From a virus (lineage: Duplodnaviria; Caudoviricetes): a stretch of DNA of 64,000 nucleotides. Where the stretch lies: the IMG/VR virus record IMGVR_UViG_2919425241_000002, positions 32,530-96,529 of that record; one strand, written 5' to 3'. Below the pieces are notes generated by a model. That model made no database searches and had not been told where the DNA came from. It was given only the letters and a program-made list of their open reading frames with translations. Shown piece by piece: positions 4,662 through 32,588 of the stretch; the stretch's first letter is position 1; each line of letters opens with the position of its first letter. Position numbers and translations under genes: made by a program.

Positions 4662-5789
4662 TTAAAATTTCAATCCAATTGTACTTTCTAATGAATCCGC
4701 GGCTTCTTCTTGCATGTTTGGCAGCAAGTGAGAATACGTGTCTAAGGTCAGAGTAATTGTAGAGTGCCCTAGACGTTCTGAGACGACTTTAGGATGCACA
4801 CCTTGCCTTAACATGATAGAAGCATGTGTATGTCTTAAATCATGGAATGTGATTGTTGGAGCTGATTCTGGTTTATAATTCTGCTGCATCGTTTTCCAAG
4901 CATGAATAACTTTAGTTGCCGTGGCCGGTGTCCCTTTGGAACTACATACAACCAAATCATTATCCTCATACTTGATTTTTGGATTTTGCTTCTCAAGCTC
5001 GTTCTTTTGTCTTTGCTCTTCGAGAATAGAGATGATTTGTTGAGAGATCGCGATTGTGCGCCGGCTCTTCTCAGTCTTCAATCCGGTAAATATGGTCATG
5101 TTCTTCACCAAATTACGCCGCACTTGAATAATTCCTTTTTCCATGTCTATATCTGACCACCGAAGCGCAAGGATCTCCCCCTGCCGCATTCCCGTCATAA
5201 CAGCCAAATAAGCGGCGATCCAGTAACGGCTCTCGTTCTTTGTTGCTTGGAAAAACTCTCTAACCGTATCGATGTCCCAAACTGCTCGTTCTTTCCTTTT
5301 GACAGTTGGCTTCTCTATTTTATTGGCAGCGTTCTTCGAGATAAGGTCTTTCCTCTCCGCGGCATTTAGTGAGGCATTCACGGTAGCGAAGATCCGCTTT
5401 ACCATTTCATCGCCTAATTCTTTTTCGCGAATTGATGCAATGAGTTGCTCCATGTGTGTTGCATTGATCTTCGACAAAGGAATGTCTCCGAGAACAGGAT
5501 TAATGTGCGTTCTAAAGTATGACTCATACATTTTCCTGGTTGAGTGTGCAATATTGGCCCGACCAGATAACCACTGCTCAAAATAAGAACCAAAACTCAT
5601 CTTGTTTGGTTCTATGTACTCCCCTTTACTGAGCTCCGTTATAATTGCGGCCCGCGCTTTTTTCGCTTCTGTAATAGTCTTGAACCCCCTGCGCGTGACA
5701 CGCTTGCCGTTAACCATAACCTGAAACCAATAGGGATTACTTTTCGCATTCTCATTAAACTTAATTGTCTTGTCCGAAGATGCTGCCAT
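4662..5789 (-). CDS. Tyrosine integrase with N-terminal arm-binding domain
   Basis: GMRQGEI, FHDLRHTHAS, LGH...TLDTYSH catalytic motifs; GGAGG RBS supports start 5789 rather than 5867. Confidence 0.95.
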   Translation of the reverse strand: MAASSDKTIKFNENAKSNPYWFQVMVNGKRVTRRGFKTITEAKKARAAIITELSKGEYIEPNKMSFGSYFEQWLSGRANIAHSTRKMYESYFRTHINPVLGDIPLSKINATHMEQLIASIREKELGDEMVKRIFATVNASLNAAERKDLISKNAANKIEKPTVKRKERAVWDIDTVREFFQATKNESRYWIAAYLAVMTGMRQGEILALRWSDIDMEKGIIQVRRNLVKNMTIFTGLKTEKSRRTIAISQQIISILEEQRQKNELEKQNPKIKYEDNDLVVCSSKGTPATATKVIHAWKTMQQNYKPESAPTITFHDLRHTHASIMLRQGVHPKVVSERLGHSTITLTLDTYSHLLPNMQEEAADSLESTIGLKF

Positions 5790-5813
5790 GATTGATCCTC
5801 CATTGATATTTAT

Positions 5814-5911
5814 CTGATGCAACCAATTATAAACCAATTGCATCAAATTTGCATCAACTAATAACAAAGCATTGATATATCTGGGTTTTCTTCAATGGTT
5901 TCCACACATCC
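5814..5911. other. Putative att arm of element A
   Basis: Direct repeats TTGCATCAA (5838-5846, 5849-5857) and an inverted copy TGATGCAA (5815-5822), typical of arm-type integrase sites; abuts the gerE fragment. Confidence 0.65.
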
Positions 5912-6058
5912 ATGGGCAGCGACCACAAAAACAAATTTCTACTTACAAACCGCGAACGCGAAGTATTCGAACTATTAGTGCAGGACAAAACGACGAAGGA
6001 TATCGCACAGCAGCTTTTCATCAGTGAGAAAACTGTGAGAAATCATATTTCCAATGTA
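5912..6058 (+). pseudogene. gerE: GerE fragment (49 codons), interrupted gene; ORF reads on into phage sequence to 6205
   Basis: LLTNREREVFELLVQDKTTKDIAQQLFISEKTVRNHISNV is near-identical to GerE; the expected MQKLxVKGRSQAVVEL C-terminus is replaced by unrelated sequence. Confidence 0.93.
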
Positions 6059-6090
6059 ACGTATTATCAAGTCATAACAAATAAAAAGAG
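6040..6090. other. Putative att junction of the serine-recombinase prophage (crossover near 6055-6060)
   Basis: GerE similarity stops at codon V49, about 40 bp from the recombinase stop codon. Confidence 0.8.
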
Positions 6091-6096
6091 GCTAGC

Positions 6097-7689
6097 TTAT
6101 AGCTGCCCCAATACAGTATATACATCCGCTTCGCCTTCTTCAGATATCTCAATACGATCAATAAGCTTGGATAAGGTGATCCTGGTAAACTCTACATCAT
6201 CATAAGTACCCCGAGCTGTAATCTGACTAAGCGCCGCTTTAATGTCTTTATGAAGTTTATCCTTATCTTTTCGCTGAGCATTCTTGGCCCGGATACTACC
6301 AAGCTTCTGTTCAGCATCAGCAATTTCTAATTCATATTGCTGTTTCTCAAATTCATACTGGTTGTCATTCATCTCTTGGAGCATATGCTGCTTCCTGATT
6401 CCAAAAAGAAGCATCCGATTATCTGCGATCGTCTTTTCCAGTCGTTTGATATCCTTCTCGAAATCATTAACTGAGTTTCCGTATTCGGATGTATCAGTTA
6501 TACCACCTGCGAAAGAACCGAAGTTCACCGCTCTGTTCATCCGCTCGACTACCCCATTAATAAGCTCGTCTCTAAACTCTTCATAAGGAACCCAAGATTT
6601 ATTTACACAACCACTAGCACCTTGCCGGCGTCTTTTGCTGCATACCAGATAAGTATACTTCCTAGCTCCCGGTCTCGGGGATCCGGACATTGCTACGATT
6701 GCCGATCCGCAGCACTTACAGAAGATCATCTTAGCGAATGCATTAACAAATTTGCGCTGCCCTCCCCGAGCTCCGCCTCCACGAACCAAGCGTATACGTT
6801 GTGCTTCTTGGAAAGCCTCTGCTGGGATTATTGCTTCATGTGTTTGAAAGTCTGTCTTCTCCCATTTACTTTTATCGCGTAAGCTAAGGACTTTTCTTCT
6901 GTTCTGCAAATCATTAATGTCATCATAGACTTGTCTGGTTTCTAGCTTCGAGAACGTGACATAACCGGTGTATGTTTCATTCTGTAAAATACGTTGAACT
7001 GAGCTTATTCCCCATGTGCCAGTTTTAGGGCTAGGCATGATCTCATTAATTGGGTCATTCAAAAACCCAACAATCAACTTTTCACCCATACCTTTATTGA
7101 TGTATAGATCGAAAATCAGCCTAACCACTTCAGCATGCTCAGGAACTACTTCCAGTGACTTCCTGCCTTCGGCTGTAACAATTTTCTTATAACCAAACGG
7201 TGCAATAGATCCAGTGAAGTTCCCAGACTTTGCAGACTGTCTCTTGCCACGCTTAGACGACGTGCTGATGTTCTCTGATTGCTTTTGGTTAACTGAAGAG
7301 ATGATGCTGAAGATCATTTCATTGTCTTCTTTACCTGAGTCATACATGTCCTCAATTGAGATAACACGAACACCTAGAGCATTGACCAACATCCGTTTTA
7401 GTGAAAGAGCATCGAGAGTGTCACGGCTAAACCTGGACAGAGATGCAAAGTAAATTGTTTTGTACAATCCCTTCTTTGCATCCTCAATTAATTTGCGGAC
7501 ATCTTCCCTCTCAATAATGTTTGTACCGGTATCACGATCAAGGTAAACATGTTCAATCTCTACATTGTCGGATGCCGCGTTTTCGCGGATCAATCCCTCT
7601 TGATGCTCAGGGCTATCTTTTTGGCTATCTTTAAGCGTAGAGACGCGGACATAAGCCCGCGCCTTCTCTTTGGTCAGTTTTTGTTGCAA
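6097..7689 (-). CDS. Large serine recombinase (phage integrase)
   Basis: YVRVST catalytic Ser, SRFSRD, APFGY, recombinase domain, CKCCG...C zinc ribbon, coiled coil. Confidence 0.95.
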   Translation of the reverse strand: MQQKLTKEKARAYVRVSTLKDSQKDSPEHQEGLIRENAASDNVEIEHVYLDRDTGTNIIEREDVRKLIEDAKKGLYKTIYFASLSRFSRDTLDALSLKRMLVNALGVRVISIEDMYDSGKEDNEMIFSIISSVNQKQSENISTSSKRGKRQSAKSGNFTGSIAPFGYKKIVTAEGRKSLEVVPEHAEVVRLIFDLYINKGMGEKLIVGFLNDPINEIMPSPKTGTWGISSVQRILQNETYTGYVTFSKLETRQVYDDINDLQNRRKVLSLRDKSKWEKTDFQTHEAIIPAEAFQEAQRIRLVRGGGARGGQRKFVNAFAKMIFCKCCGSAIVAMSGSPRPGARKYTYLVCSKRRRQGASGCVNKSWVPYEEFRDELINGVVERMNRAVNFGSFAGGITDTSEYGNSVNDFEKDIKRLEKTIADNRMLLFGIRKQHMLQEMNDNQYEFEKQQYELEIADAEQKLGSIRAKNAQRKDKDKLHKDIKAALSQITARGTYDDVEFTRITLSKLIDRIEISEEGEADVYTVLGQL

Positions 7690-7695
7690 AATATA

Positions 7696-7887
7696 TCACA
7701 CCTTTGCGTGGTTACGAATTATTTCATTGAGTCCTATTGTAAGCTTTGCGCCGTGTTTTGTTAATACAGAACTAACATTCGTATTTACGGCCGAAGCAAT
7801 AGCTTCCAAGACATCGCCTTCTACAGGAATGAAATTGATCTTTATCTTTTTCACCTGCTTGCCTTCACGTTTCCCCATAAGCATCAC
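7696..7887 (-). CDS. Small protein directly upstream of the integrase; candidate recombination directionality factor
   Basis: Size and position only; its 3' end supplies the integrase RBS (AAGGTG). Confidence 0.45.
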   Translation of the reverse strand: MMLMGKREGKQVKKIKINFIPVEGDVLEAIASAVNTNVSSVLTKHGAKLTIGLNEIIRNHAKV

Positions 7888-7893
7888 CCATAT

Positions 7894-7902
7894 TATTCTA
7901 TG
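7894..7902 (-). promoter_or_regulatory. Mother-cell sigma (SigK/SigE)-type -10 element CATAGAATA
   Basis: Matches CATA-N3-TA; lies in the short gap between ArpU and the putative RDF; no convincing -35. Confidence 0.35.
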
Positions 7903-7905
7903 TCG

Positions 7906-8502
7906 TTAAGGCTGTACATCTTTCTCGCTTTCCTTCTTCTCCCGCTGCTTCTTATCAGGCTCTGATTCCTTATAAACCTCGATATCCAGCGCCAGAGCTA
8001 TCTTGTAGAAGGCTTTGTTTCGGATCTTCCTATAAAACGTCGCTCCGATCGGCGGATTAAAAACATGGTTGTATACGTTATAATCTGTGATGTATTCAGC
8101 ATCATCCGAGAGGTAACGACTTTCCATTAACAGCCGTTCCATCCGCGGCAGCCTCTTAACTGCGGCTTCCAACCTCTCGCAATGCTTTTTCCTTCTGGCT
8201 GGCTCATCAACATTGAAAATTGCTATGTTAGCGGTCTGATCACTGGTGACGTTTGTCGGTGAGCTCCTCGGCATATCAGAGTATGCAGCCGTGATTGTTG
8301 CTTCCCTTGACTCAAAATCCATGTGTTTGAACATGCGATATTCAGCTAAATATCTCTCAACAGCCTCTTTTGTTAAATCCCGATCGATCTCCTTTAAGAA
8401 ATCGTCACCTAAGCTTAATTGAGCCAAACAATCCAACTCCTTTTTACTGGAGCTATTCTCCGTTACATTTTTCTTCATTTCCGGCATTTTGCGTTGCATC
8501 AA
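7906..8502 (-). CDS. ArpU/RinA-family late transcription activator
   Basis: ITAAYSDMPRS...SDQT...AVKRLP..ER.L...RYL...DY.VY...FY.IR.KAFYKIALAL. Confidence 0.9.
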   Translation of the reverse strand: MMQRKMPEMKKNVTENSSSKKELDCLAQLSLGDDFLKEIDRDLTKEAVERYLAEYRMFKHMDFESREATITAAYSDMPRSSPTNVTSDQTANIAIFNVDEPARRKKHCERLEAAVKRLPRMERLLMESRYLSDDAEYITDYNVYNHVFNPPIGATFYRKIRNKAFYKIALALDIEVYKESEPDKKQREKKESEKDVQP

Positions 8503-8566
8503 GGACGGACTACTGCTTGGTTTGTTTAATCACCTATCTGTGATAATATTTTTGTGGGTGATTAAA

Positions 8567-8770
8567 ATGGATAAGAACCAAACTACTGATCGTGAATTAA
8601 ATAAATTCGTCCATGAACAATTGCAAATCCTCTGTGACTTAGGAATGAGCAAATACATTGATGCTGAAGATAAAAAATCATATGAAGCTGGTCTTGGTCT
8701 AGGACAAATGATTGGAACATTTTTGATTTTGTATGAACTGAAGAAGAAGTACGGCATTGATTACGAGTGA
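8567..8770 (+). CDS. Hypothetical accessory protein (MDKNQTT...)
   Basis: GGGTG RBS before ATG 8567; opposite strand to the operon. Confidence 0.5.
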   Translation: MDKNQTTDRELNKFVHEQLQILCDLGMSKYIDAEDKKSYEAGLGLGQMIGTFLILYELKKKYGIDYE

Positions 8771-8800
8771 ACATTTTAAAGGATAGGTCTTCTGCCTTTA

Positions 8801-8890
8801 ACACCATACCAATAAACGGAATATAATATTGCTGTAAGACTCCACCCCTTAGTCATTTAGCCGTTCCTGCCGGCTAGATGACTCTTTTTT
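8801..8890 (+). ncRNA. Candidate sRNA 1: promoter, C-rich ACTCCACCCCTT motif, terminator
   Basis: ACA-16-AATATAATA; 13-bp stem at 8851-8883 with T run; no ORF. Confidence 0.5.
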
Positions 8891-9307
8891 ATATCTTTAA
8901 AATGTAACGTATGTCATAATCAAATTGGGCCTGAGGAAATATTGCTTTGGGCTTTTAACTAATTCAATATTCAAGTAGTGCCATCAATCATTAATTGTTT
9001 ATCTTCAAGTCTGCGATACAATATTCATTAATTTCCAGCACTCCGGGCAGAATAGCCTTGGGGGTGAGCATTACCGTGAAATGTGTCTACTGCGAAAATA
9101 TCCAACAAATCAAAGGTACGAAGTATAAGTGTTACACTTGCTCTATAATTAACAATCGTAAGAGATAAGTGCCTTCGGGCACTTTTTTAAGTTCTTCAAT
9201 ATTCAAAACTTGTTCGTCAGACTTGAGCCCTTAAGGTAATTTCCAATATTTAGAATCATACACTGACTATAAAAAGAAACCTCACTTCGAATTAGGTTGG
9301 TGTCACT

Positions 9308-9559
9308 ATGAAGTACCGTTTATGCGAACTACCTGAGTTGTTGGAAATCCCCAGAACTACTATCAGAAATTGGTTAACTGTTTACCATGAATTCATACCC
9401 ACTGTCCAACAAGGGAAATCCACCTTTTATGCTAATGATGCTGTGTCTGTCTTAAGAAGGATTAGTTTTCTTCGAGAGCATTTATACTCACATTCAACTA
9501 TCAAGGAAATCTTACTGGAAGAAGGATATGAAACTGTAGATGAATCTTCCGTTATTTGA
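9308..9559 (+). CDS. MerR-type HTH protein
   Basis: ELPELLEIPRTTIRNW...FY....V..LRRI..LR..LYS..TIKE; SigE-like CATACACT at 9257-9264. Confidence 0.75.
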   Translation: MKYRLCELPELLEIPRTTIRNWLTVYHEFIPTVQQGKSTFYANDAVSVLRRISFLREHLYSHSTIKEILLEEGYETVDESSVI

Positions 9560-9658
9560 ATTTGTGTTTCACACTGCAATTTTTAAGTCCCTCAATATTC
9601 AAATTTTCCCTTATGCTCCGGACGCTACTGTTGGGGTAAGATAGGCATTATACTCATA

Positions 9659-9760
9659 GCACTTTACCACTTTCTGGAATATGTTATTGATGTAGGGCCA
9701 CATTATCTCATCCCCTTTTGGTTATTGAGCCATCCCCTTGCCGGTGGGGGTGGCTCTTTC
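9659..9760 (+). ncRNA. Candidate sRNA 2: promoter, C-rich TCTCATCCCCTTTT motif, terminator
   Basis: GCA-16-AATATGTTA; GC-rich stem at 9727-9756; promoter/start region similar to sRNA 1. Confidence 0.5.
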
Positions 9761-9868
9761 CAATGTTCCTTAATATTCATTGAATTACTTGCCTTACTCT
9801 GAAGACCTTTCTAATTTCTAATCAATTTCTAATGAATAACTTACCGGGGTTTTATCATATAGGGTCTG

Positions 9869-10081
9869 TTGCTTGGATATAAATTGAGTAGAAAGGAGAT
9901 GGTGACAATCCCTAATTCGATTCATCATATGGCATCTAAGCAAGACCTTATTGATATCATGCAGACATGTGCAGACCAACAACAATGGAGAGCTGCATTA
10001 AAGTTATTCGAACTGTTACAAAAGATGGAGAAGGATAATAAAAACGCTGTTCTAATAGAGATCAGATCCGCACCACCGTAG
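9869..10081 (+). CDS. Hypothetical accessory protein (start probably near 9899-9929)
   Basis: AAGGAG RBS; opposite strand to the operon. Confidence 0.5.
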   Translation: MLGYKLSRKEMVTIPNSIHHMASKQDLIDIMQTCADQQQWRAALKLFELLQKMEKDNKNAVLIEIRSAPP

Positions 10082-10108
10082 CCGTAGCACTTATATTTGT
10101 TTATTTAA

Positions 10109-10564
10109 TTATGTGACAACAGCCGCTTCGCCATTAATCTCTTTTTGCTTTAATCCCAGCTTATGCATCACATAGGTTAACTCAAGCTTATTTACGCCAA
10201 GTTTTTTAGCTAATTGCGTTCGACTCATTGTCGTATAGTTCTTTCTCAGAAACTGCAGCTTATCTTCACTTAACGAGAACTTAACCATCCCATTTAGTGT
10301 TTCATCTGGTTCGGTAAGCAAGGATACTACTGGAGGTTTCGGCTCTCTTTTCTCGACAATCTCATAAGATTGATCTGAGCAAAAGTACACAAAATTTCTC
10401 TTAGTTCCCTCACGCGTTATTAAACCAAGCTCGCGCATCTTTTTAATTCGGCTATGAGTTTTAGTTCCTTTGGGATCGTTGAATTCCTTAGTGATTTGCG
10501 CAACTGACTTCCCAGCCTTTAAACCTTCGAACACGACGGCTTCAGCAGCTAGTAGTTGTATCAT
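10109..10564 (-). CDS. Hypothetical protein with two HTH-like segments
   Basis: KSVAQIT...GLITR and MSRTQLAKKLGV. Confidence 0.6.
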   Translation of the reverse strand: MIQLLAAEAVVFEGLKAGKSVAQITKEFNDPKGTKTHSRIKKMRELGLITREGTKRNFVYFCSDQSYEIVEKREPKPPVVSLLTEPDETLNGMVKFSLSEDKLQFLRKNYTTMSRTQLAKKLGVNKLELTYVMHKLGLKQKEINGEAAVVT

Positions 10565-11095
10565 TCAATCGCCTCCTTGGAAGCTCTTAGTCGGGTTTGA
10601 TTGTCGGTATATCTCAACCCTAATCTTTTCTTCTGGAGCATAGGCATCGGTCCAGCCAACAGGCTTTTTGATTTTCCCTTGTTCATCTCGCTCAACCTTT
10701 CCATCCGGACCAACCTTACCCATATTCGCAGCATGCACAATGTCAAAGATAGGCTCAGGCTTAACACCCATTAGCGTGTATGTTCCAATTGCAAAGTAAA
10801 TCAAGTCCGCCAAAGCATCCACTTGATCTTCAATTGTCTTAGCTCGCATAAACTCGGTGAGTTCTTCAAGCATGTATGATGCTCGGTCAAGGACTGGGAA
10901 CGTTGCAGGGAAAGGACTATTCTCTGCATTAGTCCATGTTTTCGAAAACTTCTTCATGGATTTACACAGATCATCCATACGATTACCAAATAAAATGCTT
11001 GTTTCAACTTCTCGCCCCAACATCGTCGGTGTAGCCGGCATTTCAATTCCACATGCTGTGTGGAACTGCTTAACTTGTTCATATTGCTTATCCAT
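10565..11095 (-). CDS. MazG-like/PRA-PH nucleotide pyrophosphohydrolase
   Basis: VKQFH, EELTEF, DALADLIYF, VHAANMGK, GKIKKP. Confidence 0.85.
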   Translation of the reverse strand: MDKQYEQVKQFHTACGIEMPATPTMLGREVETSILFGNRMDDLCKSMKKFSKTWTNAENSPFPATFPVLDRASYMLEELTEFMRAKTIEDQVDALADLIYFAIGTYTLMGVKPEPIFDIVHAANMGKVGPDGKVERDEQGKIKKPVGWTDAYAPEEKIRVEIYRQSNPTKSFQGGD

Positions 11096-11106
11096 CGTTC
11101 ACTCTC

Positions 11107-11316
11107 CTATTCTGTTCTCTGGCTCCATAGCAGCCGAGCTACCATGCCGATCTTGTCAATATCGTGTACTGCTTGCCAGCCGCGTCCATCGATCCAGTAA
11201 TCAACCTCGGCCCATTTCTTGCCTTTGTGGTTCCACCTGAAGTTTGTTGCTCGATATGTCTTCCCGTGAATCACGATTTGAGGGAGTAGATATATTTCGA
11301 CTCGCTCTTTTTTCAT
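11107..11316 (-). CDS. Hypothetical phage protein
   Basis: ORF in operon. Confidence 0.6.
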   Translation of the reverse strand: MKKERVEIYLLPQIVIHGKTYRATNFRWNHKGKKWAEVDYWIDGRGWQAVHDIDKIGMVARLLWSQRTE

Positions 11317-11319
11317 GGG

Positions 11320-11571
11320 CTAGGACTCCACTGATACGAATTCAACAGCACTTAAACGTTCTGCAATTCTAATCATTTGTGAATGATGACCAAGACTTTC
11401 GTAAAATCCTCTGCAGCAAGTTTCCTTACCTGCAATAGTCGCTTTATGACACACAAAGTAAGTTTGTTCTTTACATATTTCTTTGAGTAAGTTGTCCCTG
11501 CGCTTATCTGAAACTATTTTGTTTGGGCTGAACAAGCATTGGTTGCAGCATTTATCCGATACCTGAAACAT
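11320..11571 (-). CDS. Cys-rich hypothetical phage protein
   Basis: CxxCLF...FVCHK...CRGF; GGGAGG RBS. Confidence 0.7.
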   Translation of the reverse strand: MFQVSDKCCNQCLFSPNKIVSDKRRDNLLKEICKEQTYFVCHKATIAGKETCCRGFYESLGHHSQMIRIAERLSAVEFVSVES

Positions 11572-11628
11572 GTTTGCGTCCTCCCTTGCCTTAATCGGTA
11601 GCCCCCGACTAGCAGGGGCATTGAAAGA

Positions 11629-12084
11629 TTACTCTTCGTCCAAGAACGTTAACGGGGCATCTTGATCCTCTTCCTCATCGGGATCCGGAGTAAAAGGAAG
11701 GTCGTCCTCAGACACCTCACTGTCCTCTTCTGGTAGATCTGGTTCCTCGTGGGCCTCATCTGATTCTAATTGCTCATTAACTTCTTCTGTTTGTTCCTCA
11801 ACATCGGATGATCCTTTCGTTTCCACATCGTCAATCGCCAGTTGATTTTCATCTTCCTTAACTGACTCAACAGCGCCGGAATTCGTAACAACCTGCAGTC
11901 CGCGTCGTGGTTCCAAGTAATCCCGGACTTCCATTTGGGAAATTCCAAGGGCCAGGTAAAACTCATCGCGCTGCTTCAGTTCGTTCAAATCATCGAGGCT
12001 CACGCTTGACGGTAGGCTCAAGACGATTTCTACACCTTTACCACTTGTAATTTTCTTAATAGAAGCTGTTGTTTTGATTGTCAT
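11629..12084 (-). CDS. Hypothetical protein with acidic C-terminus
   Basis: ORF in operon followed by a hairpin. Confidence 0.65.
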   Translation of the reverse strand: MTIKTTASIKKITSGKGVEIVLSLPSSVSLDDLNELKQRDEFYLALGISQMEVRDYLEPRRGLQVVTNSGAVESVKEDENQLAIDDVETKGSSDVEEQTEEVNEQLESDEAHEEPDLPEEDSEVSEDDLPFTPDPDEEEDQDAPLTFLDEE

Positions 12085-24253: not shown

Positions 24254-24565
24254 TTAAACGGTTGAAAAGTTTTCTTGTAACGAATGGTAGTACATTTTCG
24301 CTTCTTCTACAAGGTCGGGAAACAATTCCTCGAAAGTGCCCCCAAGATAAAAAGTGTAGATAAGAGACATAATTAAACTTGGGTCGTTAGTGCCATTCTC
24401 AACCGAACGAATAGTCATATCTGTAACGCGAAGGTCGGATGCCATTCTGGTTTGAGTGATGTCCTTAGAAAGACGTAACTCTCGAAACCGTTGCCGCGGT
24501 TTTTGAGTTCTATCTTGTTTCTTCGGAGCTGATTTAGACCTTCTGGGAGCTCTTAGCATTTCCAT
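24254..24565 (-). CDS. Cro-like XRE HTH regulator
   Basis: RELRLSKDITQ..MA.....TIRSVENG...PSL...FEELF; divergent from the repressor. Confidence 0.85.
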   Translation of the reverse strand: MEMLRAPRRSKSAPKKQDRTQKPRQRFRELRLSKDITQTRMASDLRVTDMTIRSVENGTNDPSLIMSLIYTFYLGGTFEELFPDLVEEAKMYYHSLQENFSTV

Positions 24566-24629
24566 TTTTCACCTCCTGTCCTGTTTGTAAATCGAATATA
24601 CCACGCATTTTAAAATTTCGCAATATAAA

Positions 24630-24654
24630 TTTATGTAATTTTGAATTACATAAA
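24630..24654. promoter_or_regulatory. Operator-like palindrome TTTATGTAATT-ttg-AATTACATAAA
   Basis: Perfect 11-bp inverted repeat between the cro-like and cI-like genes. Confidence 0.7.
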
Positions 24655-24671
24655 CATGAATATAGCAAAGG

Positions 24672-25073
24672 GTGATTGTAGTGTCATTGGGCGATCGGAT
24701 TAAAGAACGCAGAGCAAGACTTGATATGCTGCAAGAACAATGTGCAGATTTAGTAGGTGTAACCAGAGGGGTTTTATCATCATACGAAAGAAATGTAAGC
24801 ATTCCACCAAGTGATGTTCTAGGTAGATTAGCCACTGCACTAAAAACGAGTTCAGACTTTTTACTTGGACTAACCGAAGATCCGACTCCAACTGTTAAAA
24901 GTAATGAATTACCTGATGAGGATGAAATTAAAAGAAGAAAATTTTTGATTGAGATGGAAGATATCTTGAGGAAAAGTTCTGATCTTGACGAAAAGATGAT
25001 GGAGCATACTTTGCGGATTATGGAGGTTACTTTCTTGGAGAGACTTGGTGAATCGAAGAGGAAGAACAAGTAA
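24672..25073 (+). CDS. Prophage repressor (XRE HTH, ImmR-like; no S24 peptidase domain)
   Basis: LGDRIKERR...Q...A..VGV.R..LS.YE....PP...LA.AL..S.DFLLG. Confidence 0.88.
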   Translation: MIVVSLGDRIKERRARLDMLQEQCADLVGVTRGVLSSYERNVSIPPSDVLGRLATALKTSSDFLLGLTEDPTPTVKSNELPDEDEIKRRKFLIEMEDILRKSSDLDEKMMEHTLRIMEVTFLERLGESKRKNK

Positions 25074-25303
25074 TTTACAATTATTTTGAATACATCGTCT
25101 TCATGAAATGCAGCATTAAGTAATTTATTTTTAAAAGGTGTGTCTCCTTTAATGGAATGACTCACCTTTTTTATTAAAGAATTTTCTTGAACTAGTCTGA
25201 CGTTAGCGTTAAGCTAACGGGCAGTTTAACACTATCAGTGTATGGTATAAATACCAAAAATACGATTATTGGTATGTCTTGAAAAATCAAAAAGATTGGT
25301 GGA

Positions 25304-26845
25304 ATGTTAATGGGTTTTTTCGAAAAAATTCGAAATATATTTTCGGATGAAATTGGCTACAGGAATAATTCATATCATACTAAAGGAGTAAGTGATAAGA
25401 AAATAATGGTGCCTAGAGATAATGACCACTTAGAGGTACTCAATATTGGTAGCAAAACAATTATCATGATTTACGGCTCTTATAGTAATGATAACAAAAG
25501 TAAATGTTGGATTGAAGGAAATTTGCAAGACGGGGAATGGGTGGATGCGGTAATTATGGAGCATACTGTATTCCAACCAGATAAAGACCTTTGGACCCGC
25601 CCTCCCATTAAAGGTCAAATAGGAACATATAATGGGGGATGGAAAAATAATAAATTTCATGGGTATGGTGTCCTTGAGACAACCGATATTCGAGCATTGT
25701 ATAGAAAATTTTACGATTTTCTTAAATTAGAACCAGGGGAAAAAACTAATCTTTTGGGGGATCACGGAAGTAATTCGGGTGCTCTTTTCCTACTTACCAA
25801 ATACGAAGGAAACTTTATAGACGGAATATTTAATGGTGAAGGAAAAGCCTATTACGGTAGGAGAACATATGATAAAGTTATTACCCAATTGTTATATGAA
25901 GGCGAATTTCAGTATGGAGTACGCAATGGGATTGGAAAAACATTTTATGACGACGGCTTAGTTCAATATGAAGGGCAATGGCTTCAAGGAAATATAGAAG
26001 GTAAAGGTGTATACAGGCTTAGAGCCGGAGATTTACTTTCGGGTAACTTTAAAAAAAATAGTTTTATTGATAAAAAGAACAACCGTTTATTAAAAGTTAT
26101 TGATTCGCCTTCAGTATCAGGTTCAGGTTGTACTATTATTTATGAGGGCGGCATAAAAGACGGAAAACGGAATGGTCGGGGGAAAGAATACGATAACGGT
26201 CATGTAATATATGATGGATACTGGCTTAACGATAAAAGGCACGGTCATGGTAGTTCTTTCAGAGTTATTGATTATTATGATAAAGCAAGGTCAGTGAAAG
26301 AATATTGTGGGGAATGGGTAGAAGATAAAAAAAGCGGTGTTGGAACATCTTTTTTTGAGGATGGGAATATAGCATATCAAGGGCAATGGCAAAATGATTC
26401 CTTTCATGGGTCTGGTGTCTCATATAATCCTGAGAAAGATTGGGGTTATTACGGACATAAACTTTCCTATAGTGGGGGGTACCATTACGGTCTTTATCAT
26501 GGACTTGGCACCCTCTATACACGTCAAGGTAAATTTGAAGGGGAGTTTGAAAACCATAATATTGTCGAAAATAAGGGGAAATGGATTTATTACCTCAGTC
26601 ATGTAAAAGACTTTAACAAAGACAGAGGATTTGGTTTTATTCTGAAACATACTGAGTTGGTAGCTGGTAAAACTCCTAATCTTAAGGAGGATATATTTTT
26701 TCACATTAGCGATTTTCAGGGAAATGCAGAAGAAAGGTTCTCTTTAATAAATGGGGAATCGACTCGAGTGAGGTTTGAGTTGGCATATGATAGTACAAAG
26801 GGTCCAAGAGCCGTTAGAGTTTCATTACATAAAATTAGCCAGTGA
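25304..26845 (+). CDS. MORN-repeat protein with C-terminal cold-shock domain
   Basis: Many Y.G.W/F..G...G.G repeats; FNKDRGFGFI...DIFFHISDF...KGPRAVRV. Confidence 0.85.
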   Translation: MLMGFFEKIRNIFSDEIGYRNNSYHTKGVSDKKIMVPRDNDHLEVLNIGSKTIIMIYGSYSNDNKSKCWIEGNLQDGEWVDAVIMEHTVFQPDKDLWTRPPIKGQIGTYNGGWKNNKFHGYGVLETTDIRALYRKFYDFLKLEPGEKTNLLGDHGSNSGALFLLTKYEGNFIDGIFNGEGKAYYGRRTYDKVITQLLYEGEFQYGVRNGIGKTFYDDGLVQYEGQWLQGNIEGKGVYRLRAGDLLSGNFKKNSFIDKKNNRLLKVIDSPSVSGSGCTIIYEGGIKDGKRNGRGKEYDNGHVIYDGYWLNDKRHGHGSSFRVIDYYDKARSVKEYCGEWVEDKKSGVGTSFFEDGNIAYQGQWQNDSFHGSGVSYNPEKDWGYYGHKLSYSGGYHYGLYHGLGTLYTRQGKFEGEFENHNIVENKGKWIYYLSHVKDFNKDRGFGFILKHTELVAGKTPNLKEDIFFHISDFQGNAEERFSLINGESTRVRFELAYDSTKGPRAVRVSLHKISQ

Positions 26846-27399: not shown

Positions 27400-27647
27400 G
27401 CGGTAAGCTTGGGTTTATCGGAGTTATGGGCATTGGTGATTATCTCGGTGATTTTCTGTGTTGGACACTTTATGCAGGGATTAAGTGGTATAATCAGTTC
27501 AACGATATTCGGGCTATCACGGGGTATTTGTATTTCACAACAGGCAGCTTATTTATTCCGATCATCCTTCACATTCTATACGATGCAAAAGCAATATATA
27601 TAACGATAATTCTTCAAAAAGAAAAGAGGGGAAGTTGGATTGTCTAA
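27400..27647 (+). pseudogene. Frameshifted C-terminal remnant of a CPBP (CAAX/Abi) intramembrane protease
   Basis: SVIFCVGHFMQG in one frame, GYLYFTTGSLFIPIILHILYD in another. Confidence 0.65.
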
Positions 27648-28632
27648 GCTTTGCTCAAAACACCGTGAAGAGCTGTTCGAGAAAATCGAGAACAACAAAA
27701 TCGTGGCGTTCTGCGTGGATTGTGAGATCGACCGCATCTATAAGACAGAAGAACTGAAACACCGCGCTACTTTTCAAAGCATAAAAGGTGAAAACATTGC
27801 CATCATGAGAAAATACAAAGACAGTTTCGCTTCAGAACGCGTCAAATACCTAGCGAAGAAATTTCTACGTGTTTTGTTGTTTACTGGGTTATCATTTATT
27901 TTGATAGGCTGGTTCTTTTCATTTCTTATAAGTCTTTCACTCGCGCTTGCGGAAGGTTTATTGCATCGATTTTTCACCTTTACAGCTTCATTTGACAGTA
28001 GTTTGTTAGGTGCTGATTATTGGATATCAGCAGGCATTTATTTTTTGATTGTGTTTATTTTTTATTGGCGTCAAGATGAAACTAAAATGCTCCAACCGCA
28101 ACTGATTCCCGAACCCATCCCTCCTGTTCGAGAGCAAATAGAGAATCGTGTTTTAGACGAGGCAGAAAGGCAAATTTCAGAGGTTACGAAATACAAAAAG
28201 CGGATTCTCGAAGAATACTTGCTGGTGGCTTCCGACATCCAAGAGGTAGACCAAATGGAAGGCGTGGAATTTGAGCATTTTTTAGCGGATATATTCCGAC
28301 GCAAAGGGTACAATGTGCAATTAACGCCGGCCAGCGGCGACGACGGCGTGGACTTAATCATCGAGAAAGCAAGAAGAAAAATCGCCGTCCAATGCAAACG
28401 ATATAGCGGGACGGTTGGCGTATCAGCCGTCCAGGAAGTGTTTGCGGGTAAATCCTTCTATGATTGCGATGAGGCTATGGTGGTCACGAACTCCACCTTA
28501 ACGGCACCTGCCGTCAAGACAGCGCGGAAACTCGGCGTGACACTCTGGGACCGAAGCCGTTTGATTGATGTGCTGGCGGAAACGCAGACGTCAATCGAAT
28601 GGGACGATTATCTAAAACGTTATTATGCATAA
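27640..28632 (+). CDS. Membrane-anchored Mrr-family restriction endonuclease
   Basis: EFEHFLA...GY...T..SGDDGVDL...VQCKRY...AVQE...VVTNS; two TM segments; N-terminal CxxH...CxxC. Confidence 0.88.
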   Translation: MSKLCSKHREELFEKIENNKIVAFCVDCEIDRIYKTEELKHRATFQSIKGENIAIMRKYKDSFASERVKYLAKKFLRVLLFTGLSFILIGWFFSFLISLSLALAEGLLHRFFTFTASFDSSLLGADYWISAGIYFLIVFIFYWRQDETKMLQPQLIPEPIPPVREQIENRVLDEAERQISEVTKYKKRILEEYLLVASDIQEVDQMEGVEFEHFLADIFRRKGYNVQLTPASGDDGVDLIIEKARRKIAVQCKRYSGTVGVSAVQEVFAGKSFYDCDEAMVVTNSTLTAPAVKTARKLGVTLWDRSRLIDVLAETQTSIEWDDYLKRYYA

Positions 28633-28893: not shown

Positions 28894-29739
28894 CTATACA
28901 ATAAACTCCTCAAACACCGGCAAACGCATCGCCCCTGATTTATACCAATCGCGATATTTTACTTTGCAGCGTACAACCGGCTTCACATAAACATGATCCT
29001 TGCTCTCACCACTCTTAAACGACTGAAACACAGGCCACATTGATTCACGAGCAGACTGAGTGATTCCGAGCTCCATAGTGCCGATCGGCCGTATACGTTC
29101 TCCTTCCGGATATCCAAGCAACCAAGAGTATTCCTTCTTGCTGTACCCAGTTATGTAGACCTCGGCATTCTGATAATTGATTACCTTTTGCCACGACCAA
29201 GAACGCGTTCCCTTTTCATACCTCGAGTCTTTCTTCTTAATCACAATACCTTCGAGCCCATGCTGACATACGATCTTAAAGAAATCCTTTGCACTACCTT
29301 TTATCGGTCGAACAATTCTATAATGCTCTGTCTCCTCAAGTGTCTCTTCAAGCAATTTCTTACGTTGTACTAACGGCAATCCAGTCACATCTATGCCGCG
29401 GTGGTACAAGATATCAAAAGCCATAAATACAACGGGTTTACGCCTCTTGCTGGATCTGAATCCTGCGTTCGTTGATTCAAAGTCTGCACGCCCGAGTTCA
29501 TCAAGAACTACAATTTCACCATCCAATATCGTTCCCTTCGGAATTGGCGGATTGTGCAGCTCGGGGTATTTCACTGTTGCATTGGTGTTCTTTGTATATA
29601 AGTTGAGTTCATCCATATTAGAAACTATCAATCGAATGCCGTCCCACTTCAGTTCTGCTAATGTGGAAATTCCATCAAACGGTTCATTGTTTTTGGCATA
29701 TTGGAGAAGCATTGGAGGAATAAACATTATCTTCATCAC
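28894..29739 (-). CDS. ATP-dependent DNA ligase (LigD ligase-domain type)
   Basis: PMLL, ELKWDGIR, LDGEIV, AFDIL, EGIVIK, RS..W.K, R.PVF. Confidence 0.9.
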   Translation of the reverse strand: MMKIMFIPPMLLQYAKNNEPFDGISTLAELKWDGIRLIVSNMDELNLYTKNTNATVKYPELHNPPIPKGTILDGEIVVLDELGRADFESTNAGFRSSKRRKPVVFMAFDILYHRGIDVTGLPLVQRKKLLEETLEETEHYRIVRPIKGSAKDFFKIVCQHGLEGIVIKKKDSRYEKGTRSWSWQKVINYQNAEVYITGYSKKEYSWLLGYPEGERIRPIGTMELGITQSARESMWPVFQSFKSGESKDHVYVKPVVRCKVKYRDWYKSGAMRLPVFEEFIV

Positions 29740-30621: not shown

Positions 30622-31278
30622 TTATTGCAACTCCATGACACTAGAAATGACCTTCAATTCCCGATTTGCGATATTCAAACCCTCGATATTCTTCTGAGTG
30701 GAGATCACATATAAGTGAGGCATAATTGCGCTGGAGCTTGCTCCTGACCGCCAATTTTGAAACTCTGCTGATTTATAAGCCTCCTCAAAAAACGAATTAT
30801 AAACAGAGAATTTACTTTGCCACTGCTTCACACTTAAAGGTGTTCTCTGGACCTCCACACAACCCAACTTCTTTTTCCCTTCTGGCGTCACAAAAGCAAA
30901 TACGGCATCTGGATTCCACACTAACGACCTGCCTGCAAAACTGAACTCCTGCTTGTATTCGTAGAGCCATTGAAACGGCTGCAAGGTGAAATATATCTCC
31001 CCAACTTCCAAAGCGTGCTCAACGTGCTCACACGGCAGCCTAGACCCATTCATCATCTGCAGGCCCTTTCGTGTTAGACGCCATATTTTTGCGCGTCTGT
31101 GCCATTCCCATTCGATTAGTTTTTCCTGAAGCAGTTCCTGAAGGTTCTGTGAAGCTTTCTTTAGTGGGCTGGAATTTAAGTTGAACAGTTTTGCTATCTG
31201 ATCCGTGCGAGCTATTGGAACTTGTGAAAGAGCCTTCAGTATAATTTCTTTCTTTGTTGGTGCGCTCAGAGTTGCCAT
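30622..31278 (-). CDS. Replication-relaxation (Replic_Relax)-family protein
   Basis: Winged-helix N-terminus, EHAL, PDAVF, CVEVQR; overlaps the FtsK 3' end. Confidence 0.75.
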   Translation of the reverse strand: MATLSAPTKKEIILKALSQVPIARTDQIAKLFNLNSSPLKKASQNLQELLQEKLIEWEWHRRAKIWRLTRKGLQMMNGSRLPCEHVEHALEVGEIYFTLQPFQWLYEYKQEFSFAGRSLVWNPDAVFAFVTPEGKKKLGCVEVQRTPLSVKQWQSKFSVYNSFFEEAYKSAEFQNWRSGASSSAIMPHLYVISTQKNIEGLNIANRELKVISSVMELQ

Positions 31279-32317
31279 TCTCGATGATCATTCCTTTCTT
31301 GAGTGGCGCCAACAATCTCTCCCACTCTCTATCGCCGCCAATGTATGGAGTCTGAACTAAAATATCTTCCCCGTGGGAATAGATGCAACGCCCCTTATCC
31401 TTAGGATTAATCTTCTCAGCTCCAGGACGATCAATGATAATTTGGGACCCGAAGTGATCCTTAGTTCGGAATGCAATGGAAGCTTCAACGTTATCTTTGA
31501 ATTGCTTATTGATCACTCTAGCATCCGGCCGCTGTGTTCCGTAGATGCAAAACACTTTAGGTTCACGTCCTTTTCGACCGATGAATCCAATTGCATAATC
31601 ACAATCGAATGCTAGTTCCTTATCCATAGTTCTCGCGGCGTACTGGGTTGGCGAAAGGTCAGCCGCCTCATCAATGAGTACAACAATCGGCTTGAAAGCA
31701 GCAACAGTCTCTTCACGATTCCCAAACTCCCTCGACTGAATTACGGCCTTTCTCCTCTCGAGCTCCTTCACCAATCCCACAAGTATCTTCCTGCTGGATT
31801 TAAGTTCATCCGCAACCGTTACAAGCCCCTCAAAAGGTGAGAAGGAATATCCTTTCATGTCGCAGATGTATACTTCGTAACCTTGCAAAAGAAGTTGATA
31901 TGCAATCCATCTCTGCCAATCCGTCTTTCCTGCACCGGACGCACCGCCCTCCAGAATATGAACATTAAGGGGATGGTAAACAGGTTGCATTAACCGATCG
32001 TAGCCAATAAGCAATTGATTCTGCTTCAAGTGCTCCTTCTTAAAGCGCAAAGGAAACGGCCAATCTTTTTCGATGATTCTGCAGACGAGCAGCCCCTTGA
32101 AGTTGATTAACTCAACTTCTTTCCCACACGTCGCTATAAGCGCAGGAAGGTATTTCTCAGCCTCTTCATAGGACGAGTTTAGCGGTACATGGAATCCGAT
32201 TTCCCACCCGCATATGACCCTTCTATGCTTGTAATACGTCCAACCCTTTTGCCCTTCCTTGATGTCTTTTAGCAATGGCTTATTGAGTATTCGAAGAATG
32301 CGTTGTGTGTAGTTCAT
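31040..32317 (-). CDS. FtsK/SpoIIIE-domain ATPase
   Basis: GGASGAGKT Walker A, DMKG, LIDEAADL Walker B, GR...TQRPD. Confidence 0.88.
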   Translation of the reverse strand: MNYTQRILRILNKPLLKDIKEGQKGWTYYKHRRVICGWEIGFHVPLNSSYEEAEKYLPALIATCGKEVELINFKGLLVCRIIEKDWPFPLRFKKEHLKQNQLLIGYDRLMQPVYHPLNVHILEGGASGAGKTDWQRWIAYQLLLQGYEVYICDMKGYSFSPFEGLVTVADELKSSRKILVGLVKELERRKAVIQSREFGNREETVAAFKPIVVLIDEAADLSPTQYAARTMDKELAFDCDYAIGFIGRKGREPKVFCIYGTQRPDARVINKQFKDNVEASIAFRTKDHFGSQIIIDRPGAEKINPKDKGRCIYSHGEDILVQTPYIGGDREWERLLAPLKKGMIIENGNSERTNKERNYTEGSFTSSNSSHGSDSKTVQLKFQPTKESFTEPSGTASGKTNRMGMAQTRKNMASNTKGPADDEWV

Positions 32318-32588
32318 ATGCTTACGAGAACGAGGACTAAAGCTGCAGATAAGAGAAGTACAAGCGTAGTTTTTGGGTGATCTTTAAACCAATTTGAATT
32401 TGGTGTTGAACCTTGTTGATCTTGCCAGAATGGATCGGCCATAATGGCGGCACCTCCAGTGAGCGCAATGCGCGAATAAGTGAGTTGAGTGGAACGAAAC
32501 GAAAGGATACGAAAAAATTAATAGGGGTGAATGTCACATAAGTTAAGCCGAACAAGCAATGAATTACCTCCCTGTACCATTCACCCCT

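Follow-up and report, generated by a model that had tools for sequence, protein, structure and literature searches.

A prophage inside the sporulation gene gerE and a conserved cassette that may excise it in the mother cell

The question raised by this locus is when a prophage whose integrase gene lies at the end of its early operon would make that enzyme and leave the chromosome. The stretch of DNA analysed here (the window, 64,000 nucleotides (nt), positions 32,530 to 96,529 of IMG/VR virus record IMGVR_UViG_2919425241_000002) is occupied from 6055 onwards by a complete-looking temperate siphovirus-type prophage, which lies inside the coding sequence of gerE. The product of gerE is the last mother-cell transcription factor of sporulation. 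That the attachment (att) junction is inside this gene is the decisive context absent from an earlier reading of the same DNA (the original prediction), which had proposed two inputs to the integrase, lytic read-through and a sporulation promoter. We consider it reasonably likely that a promoter of the sigmaK/sigmaE type drives a recombination directionality factor (RDF) together with the integrase for excision in the mother cell, and that read-through from the gene for an ArpU-family regulator does so in lytic growth. The features needed for this argument are as follows.

5912–6054, plus strand: 5' part of gerE (gerE-5'), about 47 codons ending ...EKTVRNHIS-N, followed by phage DNA
6030–6080, no strand assigned: hybrid attachment site, with the gerE B arm, the predicted central dinucleotide AA (6053–6054) and the integrase-proximal phage arm
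6055–64000, minus strand: prophage body, at least 58 kb, passing the right end of the record; PHROG, Pfam and NCBIfam matches
6097–7689, minus strand: large serine integrase (int), 530 amino acids (aa), TTG start, with Resolvase, Recombinase and Zn_ribbon_recom domains; phrog_95 integrase, 2e-96
7696–7878, minus strand: small open reading frame (ORF), candidate RDF, 60 aa, ATG at 7878, stop 6 nt before the int start
7736–7764, minus strand: sigma-70-like TTAACA-17-TACAAT (10/12 in a consensus scan), within the small ORF and about 47 nt upstream of the start of int
7883–7889, minus strand: Shine-Dalgarno (SD) sequence GGGTGAT of the small ORF; GGTGATG in relatives, 3–5 nt before the aligned ATG/GTG
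7894–7902, minus strand: CATAGAATA, a sigmaK/sigmaE-type -10 in the 18-nt gap after the ArpU stop codon; predicted transcription start site (TSS) near 7888
7906–8502, minus strand: ArpU-family regulator of late-gene (packaging/lysis) transcription, at the end of the early/replication operon; TIGR01637, phrog_248
7920–7922, minus strand: -35-like AAG within the coding sequence of ArpU, upstream of the -10 at 17-nt spacing; imperfect against the sigmaK "AC"

The ORF at 5912 encodes a GerE/LuxR helix-turn-helix (HTH) domain that is broken off (PF00196, 1.9e-16, profile positions 3–41 of 57). It is 85–94% identical to the gerE-5' halves of Paenibacillaceae in which the 3' half (gerE-3') lies beside a homologous integrase. 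The gerE sequence ends at the junction, placing the insertion within the coding sequence of a mother-cell-specific sporulation gene. The att site was located by alignment with the junctions of 20 or more relatives and with reconstructed attP and attB sites (L001/L004, L002/L005, L003/L006 and L018/L048). The junction, at about 6053, falls at the His-Ile-Ser-Asn codons of gerE, where the Bacillus cereus gin element has its 9-bp core (PMC5595907) and where phage Xenia integrates (PMC12453123). The prophage carries its own site-specific recombinase beside the attachment site, with the predicted crossover 42 nt from the end of the integrase gene.

Domains PF00239, PF07508 and PF13408 all score above their cut-offs and identify the enzyme as a large serine recombinase; the YVRVST catalytic-serine motif and four Cys residues are invariant across 30 integrase homologues. 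Homologues with at least 42% identity were identified in 38 of 301 sampled Paenibacillaceae genomes, and a gerE half abuts the integrase in 26 of the 30 Paenibacillaceae loci that were read. Three genomes (G001–G003) encode integrases that are 57–63% identical to that of the window, each directly followed by the 3' half of gerE. The two gerE halves are 41–61 kb apart in these genomes (58 kb apart in G042), and the split gerE is the only strong gerE match in each of the three. Isolated Paenibacillus larvae phages (Xenia, Shelly, Lily and others) have an integrase that is 51% identical. Integration of Xenia into P. larvae gerE, just downstream of its int, was shown experimentally and yields a 9-bp duplication (PMC12453123). 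The comparison of attP positions in related phages, which the original prediction had proposed, places the Xenia attP directly after int and at the same gerE codons, with 15 nt of gerE sequence. Together, these loci suggest that the gerE-targeting elements of Paenibacillaceae form a large family, extending from full temperate phages to remnants of about 2.9 kb.

On the minus strand, ArpU (8502–7906) is followed by the small ORF, the serine integrase (7689–6097) and the att junction, in the order that had been claimed. Assignment of the first gene to the ArpU family is firm (77.3 bits against TIGR01637, cut-off 43.1, covering profile positions 1–136 of 136). The original prediction also described this module as relocated, which does not hold: ArpU, the small ORF and int occur in the same order in the relatives, and Xenia has DnaB ... 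RuvC, activator, small ORF, integrase, attP, morons, HNH and genome end. Thus, the arrangement of ArpU, small ORF, int, attP and HNH/terminase is the normal layout of the lineage. No terminator-like site was found in the 27-nt gap between ArpU and the small ORF. The claimed lytic read-through from ArpU into the small ORF and int is drawn from that lack and is, to this extent, plausible.

The small ORF was listed as 7887–7696 (63 aa), but alignment with relatives moves its start, probably, to the ATG at 7878. Its stop codon is 6 nt from the TTG of int, so the two genes are predicted to form one transcription unit. Homologues (20–57% identity) occur directly upstream of int, or overlapping it, in 22 related loci, at a distance of 6–19 nt or with an overlap of 11–89 nt, and the family spans 47–72 aa (alignment A1, 23 members). 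A profile search recovered 65 database homologues, all annotated as "hypothetical" and none with a Pfam domain; those with a named source are from Paenibacillus, Cohnella or Brevibacillus. When the single sequence was used as the query, only the protein itself was found.

Shrunken elements indicate which genes are retained. A mini-element of about 2.9 kb between two gerE halves (L017:250-3110) has no more than three genes: int, the small ORF and one of 251 aa on the reverse strand. In L039 and in the tandem units of L023, the CATA motif described below, the small ORF and int are kept in the absence of a complete ArpU, and little else is shared. Large serine integrases require an RDF for recombination of attL with attR (PMC5595907, PMC6957869). 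Given this requirement and the retention of the unit in shrunken elements, the small ORF is the best candidate for the RDF of the integrase.

The L023 units themselves (contig C156 of genome G282) are tandem repeats with a 2866-bp period, with integrase copies at 94896–96449 and 97762–99315. Each repeat contains an ArpU fragment and an integrase, and the small ORF was read in the first.

The original prediction placed a -10 of the SigK/SigE type in the gap after ArpU, and CATAGAATA is indeed present at 7902–7894. The B. subtilis sigmaK promoter consensus is AC, 16/17 nt, then CATA-N3-TA. The same consensus was used in the study of SPbeta (PMC4191935). The -10 part of this consensus is found in the window and also in 24 related elements. 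Among the resulting 25 elements, which include Xenia (CATAAGATA) and the mini-element L017 (CATAACCTA), CATA-N3-T[A/G] is 6–7 nt before the SD (GGTGATG) in 20 and 2–9 nt before it in all 25, while the N3 positions vary freely. The set is divergent, with integrases sharing 44–63% identity and small ORFs 19–57%. A motif so placed is expected by chance at about 0.9% per locus, a figure that does not extend to the set as a whole, as the loci are related. In the more distant gerE-associated loci L042 and L044, CATACATTA is further upstream. The native gerE promoter in seven of these genomes reads cgcAC-N17-CATAnnATA/G. Thus, these hosts appear to use a sigmaK consensus of the B. subtilis type, and the cassette has the same -10. 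The mother-cell promoter for RDF and integrase and the SPbeta-like excision proposed earlier therefore have strong comparative backing in the joint conservation of motif, small ORF and int in gerE elements and in the similarity to native gerE promoters; the imperfect -35 (AAG) counts against them.

The composite CATA-N3-TA-N5-GGTGAT occurs once in the window, and AAS-N17-CATA-N3-TR has three matches, none of them before late genes. We considered an ArpU-dependent late promoter and rejected it, as the composite motif is unique in the window, nothing like it precedes the late genes, and it persists in L017, which has no ArpU.

A GC-rich hairpin lies between the ArpU stop codon and the CATA motif in L016, L018, L020, L023–L026, L033, L034 and L037 (for example GGGGCAAC...GCCCC, with different stems in L018 and L037). 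It ends 4–6 nt before the -10 motif and has a -35-like AAC/AAG on its 5' side. A role as terminator was rejected because the hairpin has no U-tract. It is absent from phage Xenia and from the window, where the ArpU ORF runs through this region.

A second promoter-like sequence, TTAACA-17-TACAAT, is inside the small ORF. Most relatives have a sigma-70-like match of 9–10/12 at the homologous codons (VL.KHGA...). It is a possible, weak candidate for a promoter of int only, or may be a by-product of protein conservation.

We predict that the prophage has a two-gene recombination operon at the end of its early operon, with a 60-aa RDF followed, after 6 nt, by the integrase beside the att site. In the mother cell, sigmaK (or sigmaE) polymerase would transcribe the small ORF and int from the CATAGAATA promoter. 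Recombination of attL with attR by the RDF-integrase complex would release the prophage as a circle and bring the two parts of gerE together again, while the forespore genome would retain its copy. In lytic induction, read-through via ArpU would carry transcription of the early operon into the small ORF and int, and after circularisation attP, HNH and the terminase genes would come behind ArpU and int. The identities of the genes, the gerE target, the conservation of small ORF, motif and spacing, and the survival of the module in mini-elements were observed directly; RDF activity, promoter activity, sigma dependence, read-through and mother-cell specificity are deduced from them.

Several observations weigh against this scheme. 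The sigmaK -35 element AC is missing from the window, which has AAG at 17-nt spacing, and across the 25 elements the -35 column reads AA in 22, then C in 9 and G in 10, so that no more than 9 of the 25 have AC. The -10 and the SD are 6 nt apart, and the predicted TSS near 7888 would give a leader of only about 10 nt, starting at the SD itself. By itself the 9-mer does not exceed chance, with 22 copies of CATANNNTA in the window where 30 would be expected, so the weight rests on conservation in relatives, and kinship among the elements inflates that apparent conservation. Co-transcription of RDF and integrase gives no account of how integrase alone would arise for integration. In the gin element, which has the same target, the RDF gene girX is far from girC. 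The gerE-5' of the window has no native promoter, SD or start codon, and the region upstream is unlike that of native gerE. An in-frame ATG at 5912, without an SD and at codon 1–2, comes from a neighbouring tyrosine-integrase element and stands in for the gerE start. No copy of the native gerE upstream region, and no gerE-3' piece, was found anywhere in the 96.5-kb record. As gerE-5' has lost its promoter and SD to this second element, prophage excision alone may not restore an expressed gerE; with gerE-5' promoterless and gerE-3' outside the record, any benefit of excision to this particular host is conjectural.

These points bear on three other explanations. The small ORF may be another partner of int (for instance a small regulator that binds DNA, or a leader to which int translation is coupled), with the true RDF elsewhere in the prophage. 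The protein matches no family in Pfam, PHROG or NCBIfam, and its AlphaFold2 model, which consists of only two helices and an extended N-terminus, has no match in the PDB at E <= 0.001 and no usable match in the Atlas; a structural reading as ribbon-helix-helix-like was considered and is unsupported. RDFs of serine integrases are also often unlinked to int, GirX being about 25 genes from girC in gin (PMC5595907). We nevertheless judge this explanation unlikely, given that the small ORF is beside nearly every gerE-targeting integrase read, that it is among the three genes left in L017 and among the little that the L039 and L023 units share, and that Skr, the RDF of skin, is of the same size and in the same position (PMC6957869).

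Also weighed was a role of the hairpin, CATA-N3-T and SD block as a signal of the phage cycle (a site for a factor such as ArpU, or an RNA element), in which case excision would occur only on lytic induction and lysogens would be plain gerE mutants. The imperfect -35, the very short predicted leader, the structurally conserved hairpin that precedes the motif in many relatives and the already promoterless gerE of the window would all fit, and Xenia lysogens have been described only as phage-resistant (PMC12453123). This account leaves unexplained why the motif persists in L017, which lacks ArpU and other phage genes, and why the composite motif is unique in the window with no similar site before late genes. 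An invariant CA ahead of TA-N3-T is what marks sigmaE/K promoters and is common to native gerE promoters, and none of the three lysogen genomes examined has a strong gerE match other than the split gene. We therefore rate a phage-cycle signal as quite unlikely. That TA-N3-T, as part of CATA-N3-T, serves as an ordinary sigmaA -10, with the small ORF and int expressed constitutively at a low level, seems highly improbable: TAGAAT in the window matches TATAAT at 5/6 positions and SPbeta sprA is expressed vegetatively (PMC4191935), but relatives have poor hexamers (TACCCT, TAGCCT) while CATA is invariant, the -35 region (GGcAA[C/G]) is unlike TTGACA, and constitutive RDF and integrase would destabilise lysogeny. 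The preferred explanation is thus that of a mother-cell promoter for an RDF-integrase operon.

The orientation of the insertion sets this prophage apart from most of its relatives. The junctions compared (window positions 6053–6075, L018/L048 and L016–L044) fall into two orientation classes. At 24 loci, int runs in the direction of gerE and adjoins gerE-3'; in the window, L018 and L025 it is convergent on gerE-5'. Read in the direction of int, 15 or more co-directional loci have CTTGA-N12-AA as their int-proximal arm, and the window and L018 have CTTGA-N12-TT, present in the window as its reverse complement. Both junctions were recovered for L018 (L018/L048), and its full attP is an imperfect inverted repeat about the central dinucleotide. 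Serine integrases take their polarity from the central dinucleotide, so that a flipped dinucleotide would explain an inverted insertion. The prophage of the window is inserted inverted, apparently through such a flip, although its second junction is outside the record.

The tyrosine integrase gene to the left (4662–5867, minus strand, 401-aa ORF) abuts gerE-5', and gerE is therefore interrupted twice. In another Paenibacillaceae genome (G011, L039:1-530), gerE-5' is likewise without its native upstream region, and a C-terminal fragment of ArpU is about 190 nt upstream. This arrangement points to a second insertion of phage origin in that genome, right at the beginning of gerE. A joint reading of the window would be that gerE is cut at codon 2 by the tyrosine-integrase element and at codon 48 by the prophage, so that two recombinases are needed in the mother cell, and that the lineage flips its orientation via an AA to TT change in attP, which changes the phage genes facing the sigmaK-driven gerE promoter. 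We regard this combination as speculative and rather improbable.

Other genes of the prophage that bear on its completeness and layout are listed below.

16971–15574, within the prophage body: DnaB helicase
24565–24254, within the prophage body: HTH protein (HTH_3)
39695–38943, within the prophage body: endolysin
61396–59585, same strand as ArpU and int: large terminase, late gene
61646–61257, same strand as ArpU and int: small terminase, late gene
62196–61831, same strand as ArpU and int: HNH, late gene

The late genes (HNH and both terminases, 62196–59585) are at the opposite end of the prophage from ArpU and int and on the same strand, and therefore come to lie 3' of ArpU and int solely in the circular form. 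This agrees with the earlier claim that the prophage is permuted, with late genes joining ArpU only after circularisation. A single DNA sequencing run, and no RNA run, is listed for this sequence; the contigs of that run, probably the source assembly, contain the integrated form only, with neither loose ends nor joints.

In the whole 96.5-kb record, the only other matches to recombinase families are the tyrosine integrase at 4662–5867 and a small resolvase to the left of the window, both outside this prophage. The latter is a resolvase/invertase-type serine recombinase at record positions 32024–32422 (a 244-aa open frame) and belongs to the left-hand element. The original prediction had remarked that no integrase is next to the repressor at 24.7 kb. 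There is no integrase at that position, but the label of repressor is unsupported: the ORF at 24569–25165 has no family match, the sole nearby HTH_3 protein being that at 24254–24565, and no CI-type repressor was clearly identified around the plus-strand cargo genes opposite the early operon. This cargo is unusual. The gene at 25304–26845 encodes MORN repeats and a cold-shock domain, and that at 27640–28632 resembles a restriction endonuclease and a cold-shock protein; near this pair are a DNA ligase (28894–29739) and an FtsK/SpoIIIE-like protein (31040–32317). A megablast search of window positions 6000–12000 against phages gave no match, and no relative was found when a viral contig collection was scanned with the integrase.

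Only a few elements that interrupt sporulation genes, in Bacillus and Clostridioides, have been shown to be excised in development. The comparison suggests that Paenibacillaceae elements and isolated P. larvae phages all insert at the same gerE codons and have a single compact cassette of promoter, RDF and integrase in common. If so, the small ORFs would constitute a new RDF family for serine integrases, the elements would provide a natural series of active phages decaying into domesticated developmental switches, and the inverted insertions would be a case from nature in which the central dinucleotide controls orientation. The findings also bear on the effect of Fernvirus lysogeny on host spore formation. 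Among the papers covered by our literature search, none reported sporulation-timed excision of Paenibacillus gerE prophages, and none described how widespread the family is in Paenibacillaceae, proposed the small ORFs as a family of candidate RDFs, or noted the conserved signature of sigmaK type or the orientation flip. A prophage in gerE of B. glycinifermentans was already noted by Abe et al. (PMC5595907).

The kind of element is itself known from skin, SPbeta and gin, and the integration of Xenia into gerE has been published; the case made here is by comparison of sequences only. The original prediction took SPbeta sprB as its analogue. The model of developmental excision stands, but a promoter upstream of two genes only 6 nt apart would drive RDF and integrase together, making skr-spoIVCA of skin closer than sprB alone. 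In skin, the 64-aa RDF Skr overlaps spoIVCA and is under sigmaE (PMC6957869). As with the candidate RDF here, an RDF gene of about 60 aa adjoins or overlaps a large serine recombinase gene. Both genes are expressed from one mother-cell sigma promoter (predicted here), the element splits a mother-cell sporulation gene, and natural shrunken forms retain the recombination unit alone. Unlike the window element, skin is a defective prophage and its target is sigK; skr needs sigmaE with SpoIIID, whereas the signature here fits sigmaK best. SPbeta (sprB-sprA, PMC4191935) shares with the window element an active prophage in a mother-cell gene and RDF inputs from induction read-through and from a sigmaE/K promoter directly upstream with an imperfect -35 (both predicted here), and a minimal SPbeta element of int and RDF still excises in sporulation (PMC4191935). 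It differs in its target (spsM) and in the expression of sprA, which is transcribed from a separate vegetative promoter and not together with sprB from the one used in sporulation. The distance between TSS and start codon also differs, being 20 nt for sprB and a predicted 10 nt or so for the small ORF.

Insertion of the B. cereus gin element (GirC/GirX, PMC5595907) is likewise at the His-Ile-Ser-Asn codons of gerE, and the central dinucleotide is again AA. The gin serine integrase adjoins gerE-3', an RDF is required, girC and girX are expressed at T3–T5, and gerE is rejoined in sporulation. The gin element has no phage genes and three recombinases, and its girX encodes 42 aa; compared with gin, the window element is a full prophage, has its RDF candidate adjacent to int and is inserted in the opposite orientation. 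The Fernvirus phages of P. larvae (Xenia, Shelly, Lily and others; PMC12453123) resemble it in the integrase, in the gene order as far as HNH and cos, and in the presence of CATAAGATA before the small ORF, and differ in being about 40 kb, in having another host and in their direct insertion (central AA in the int direction).

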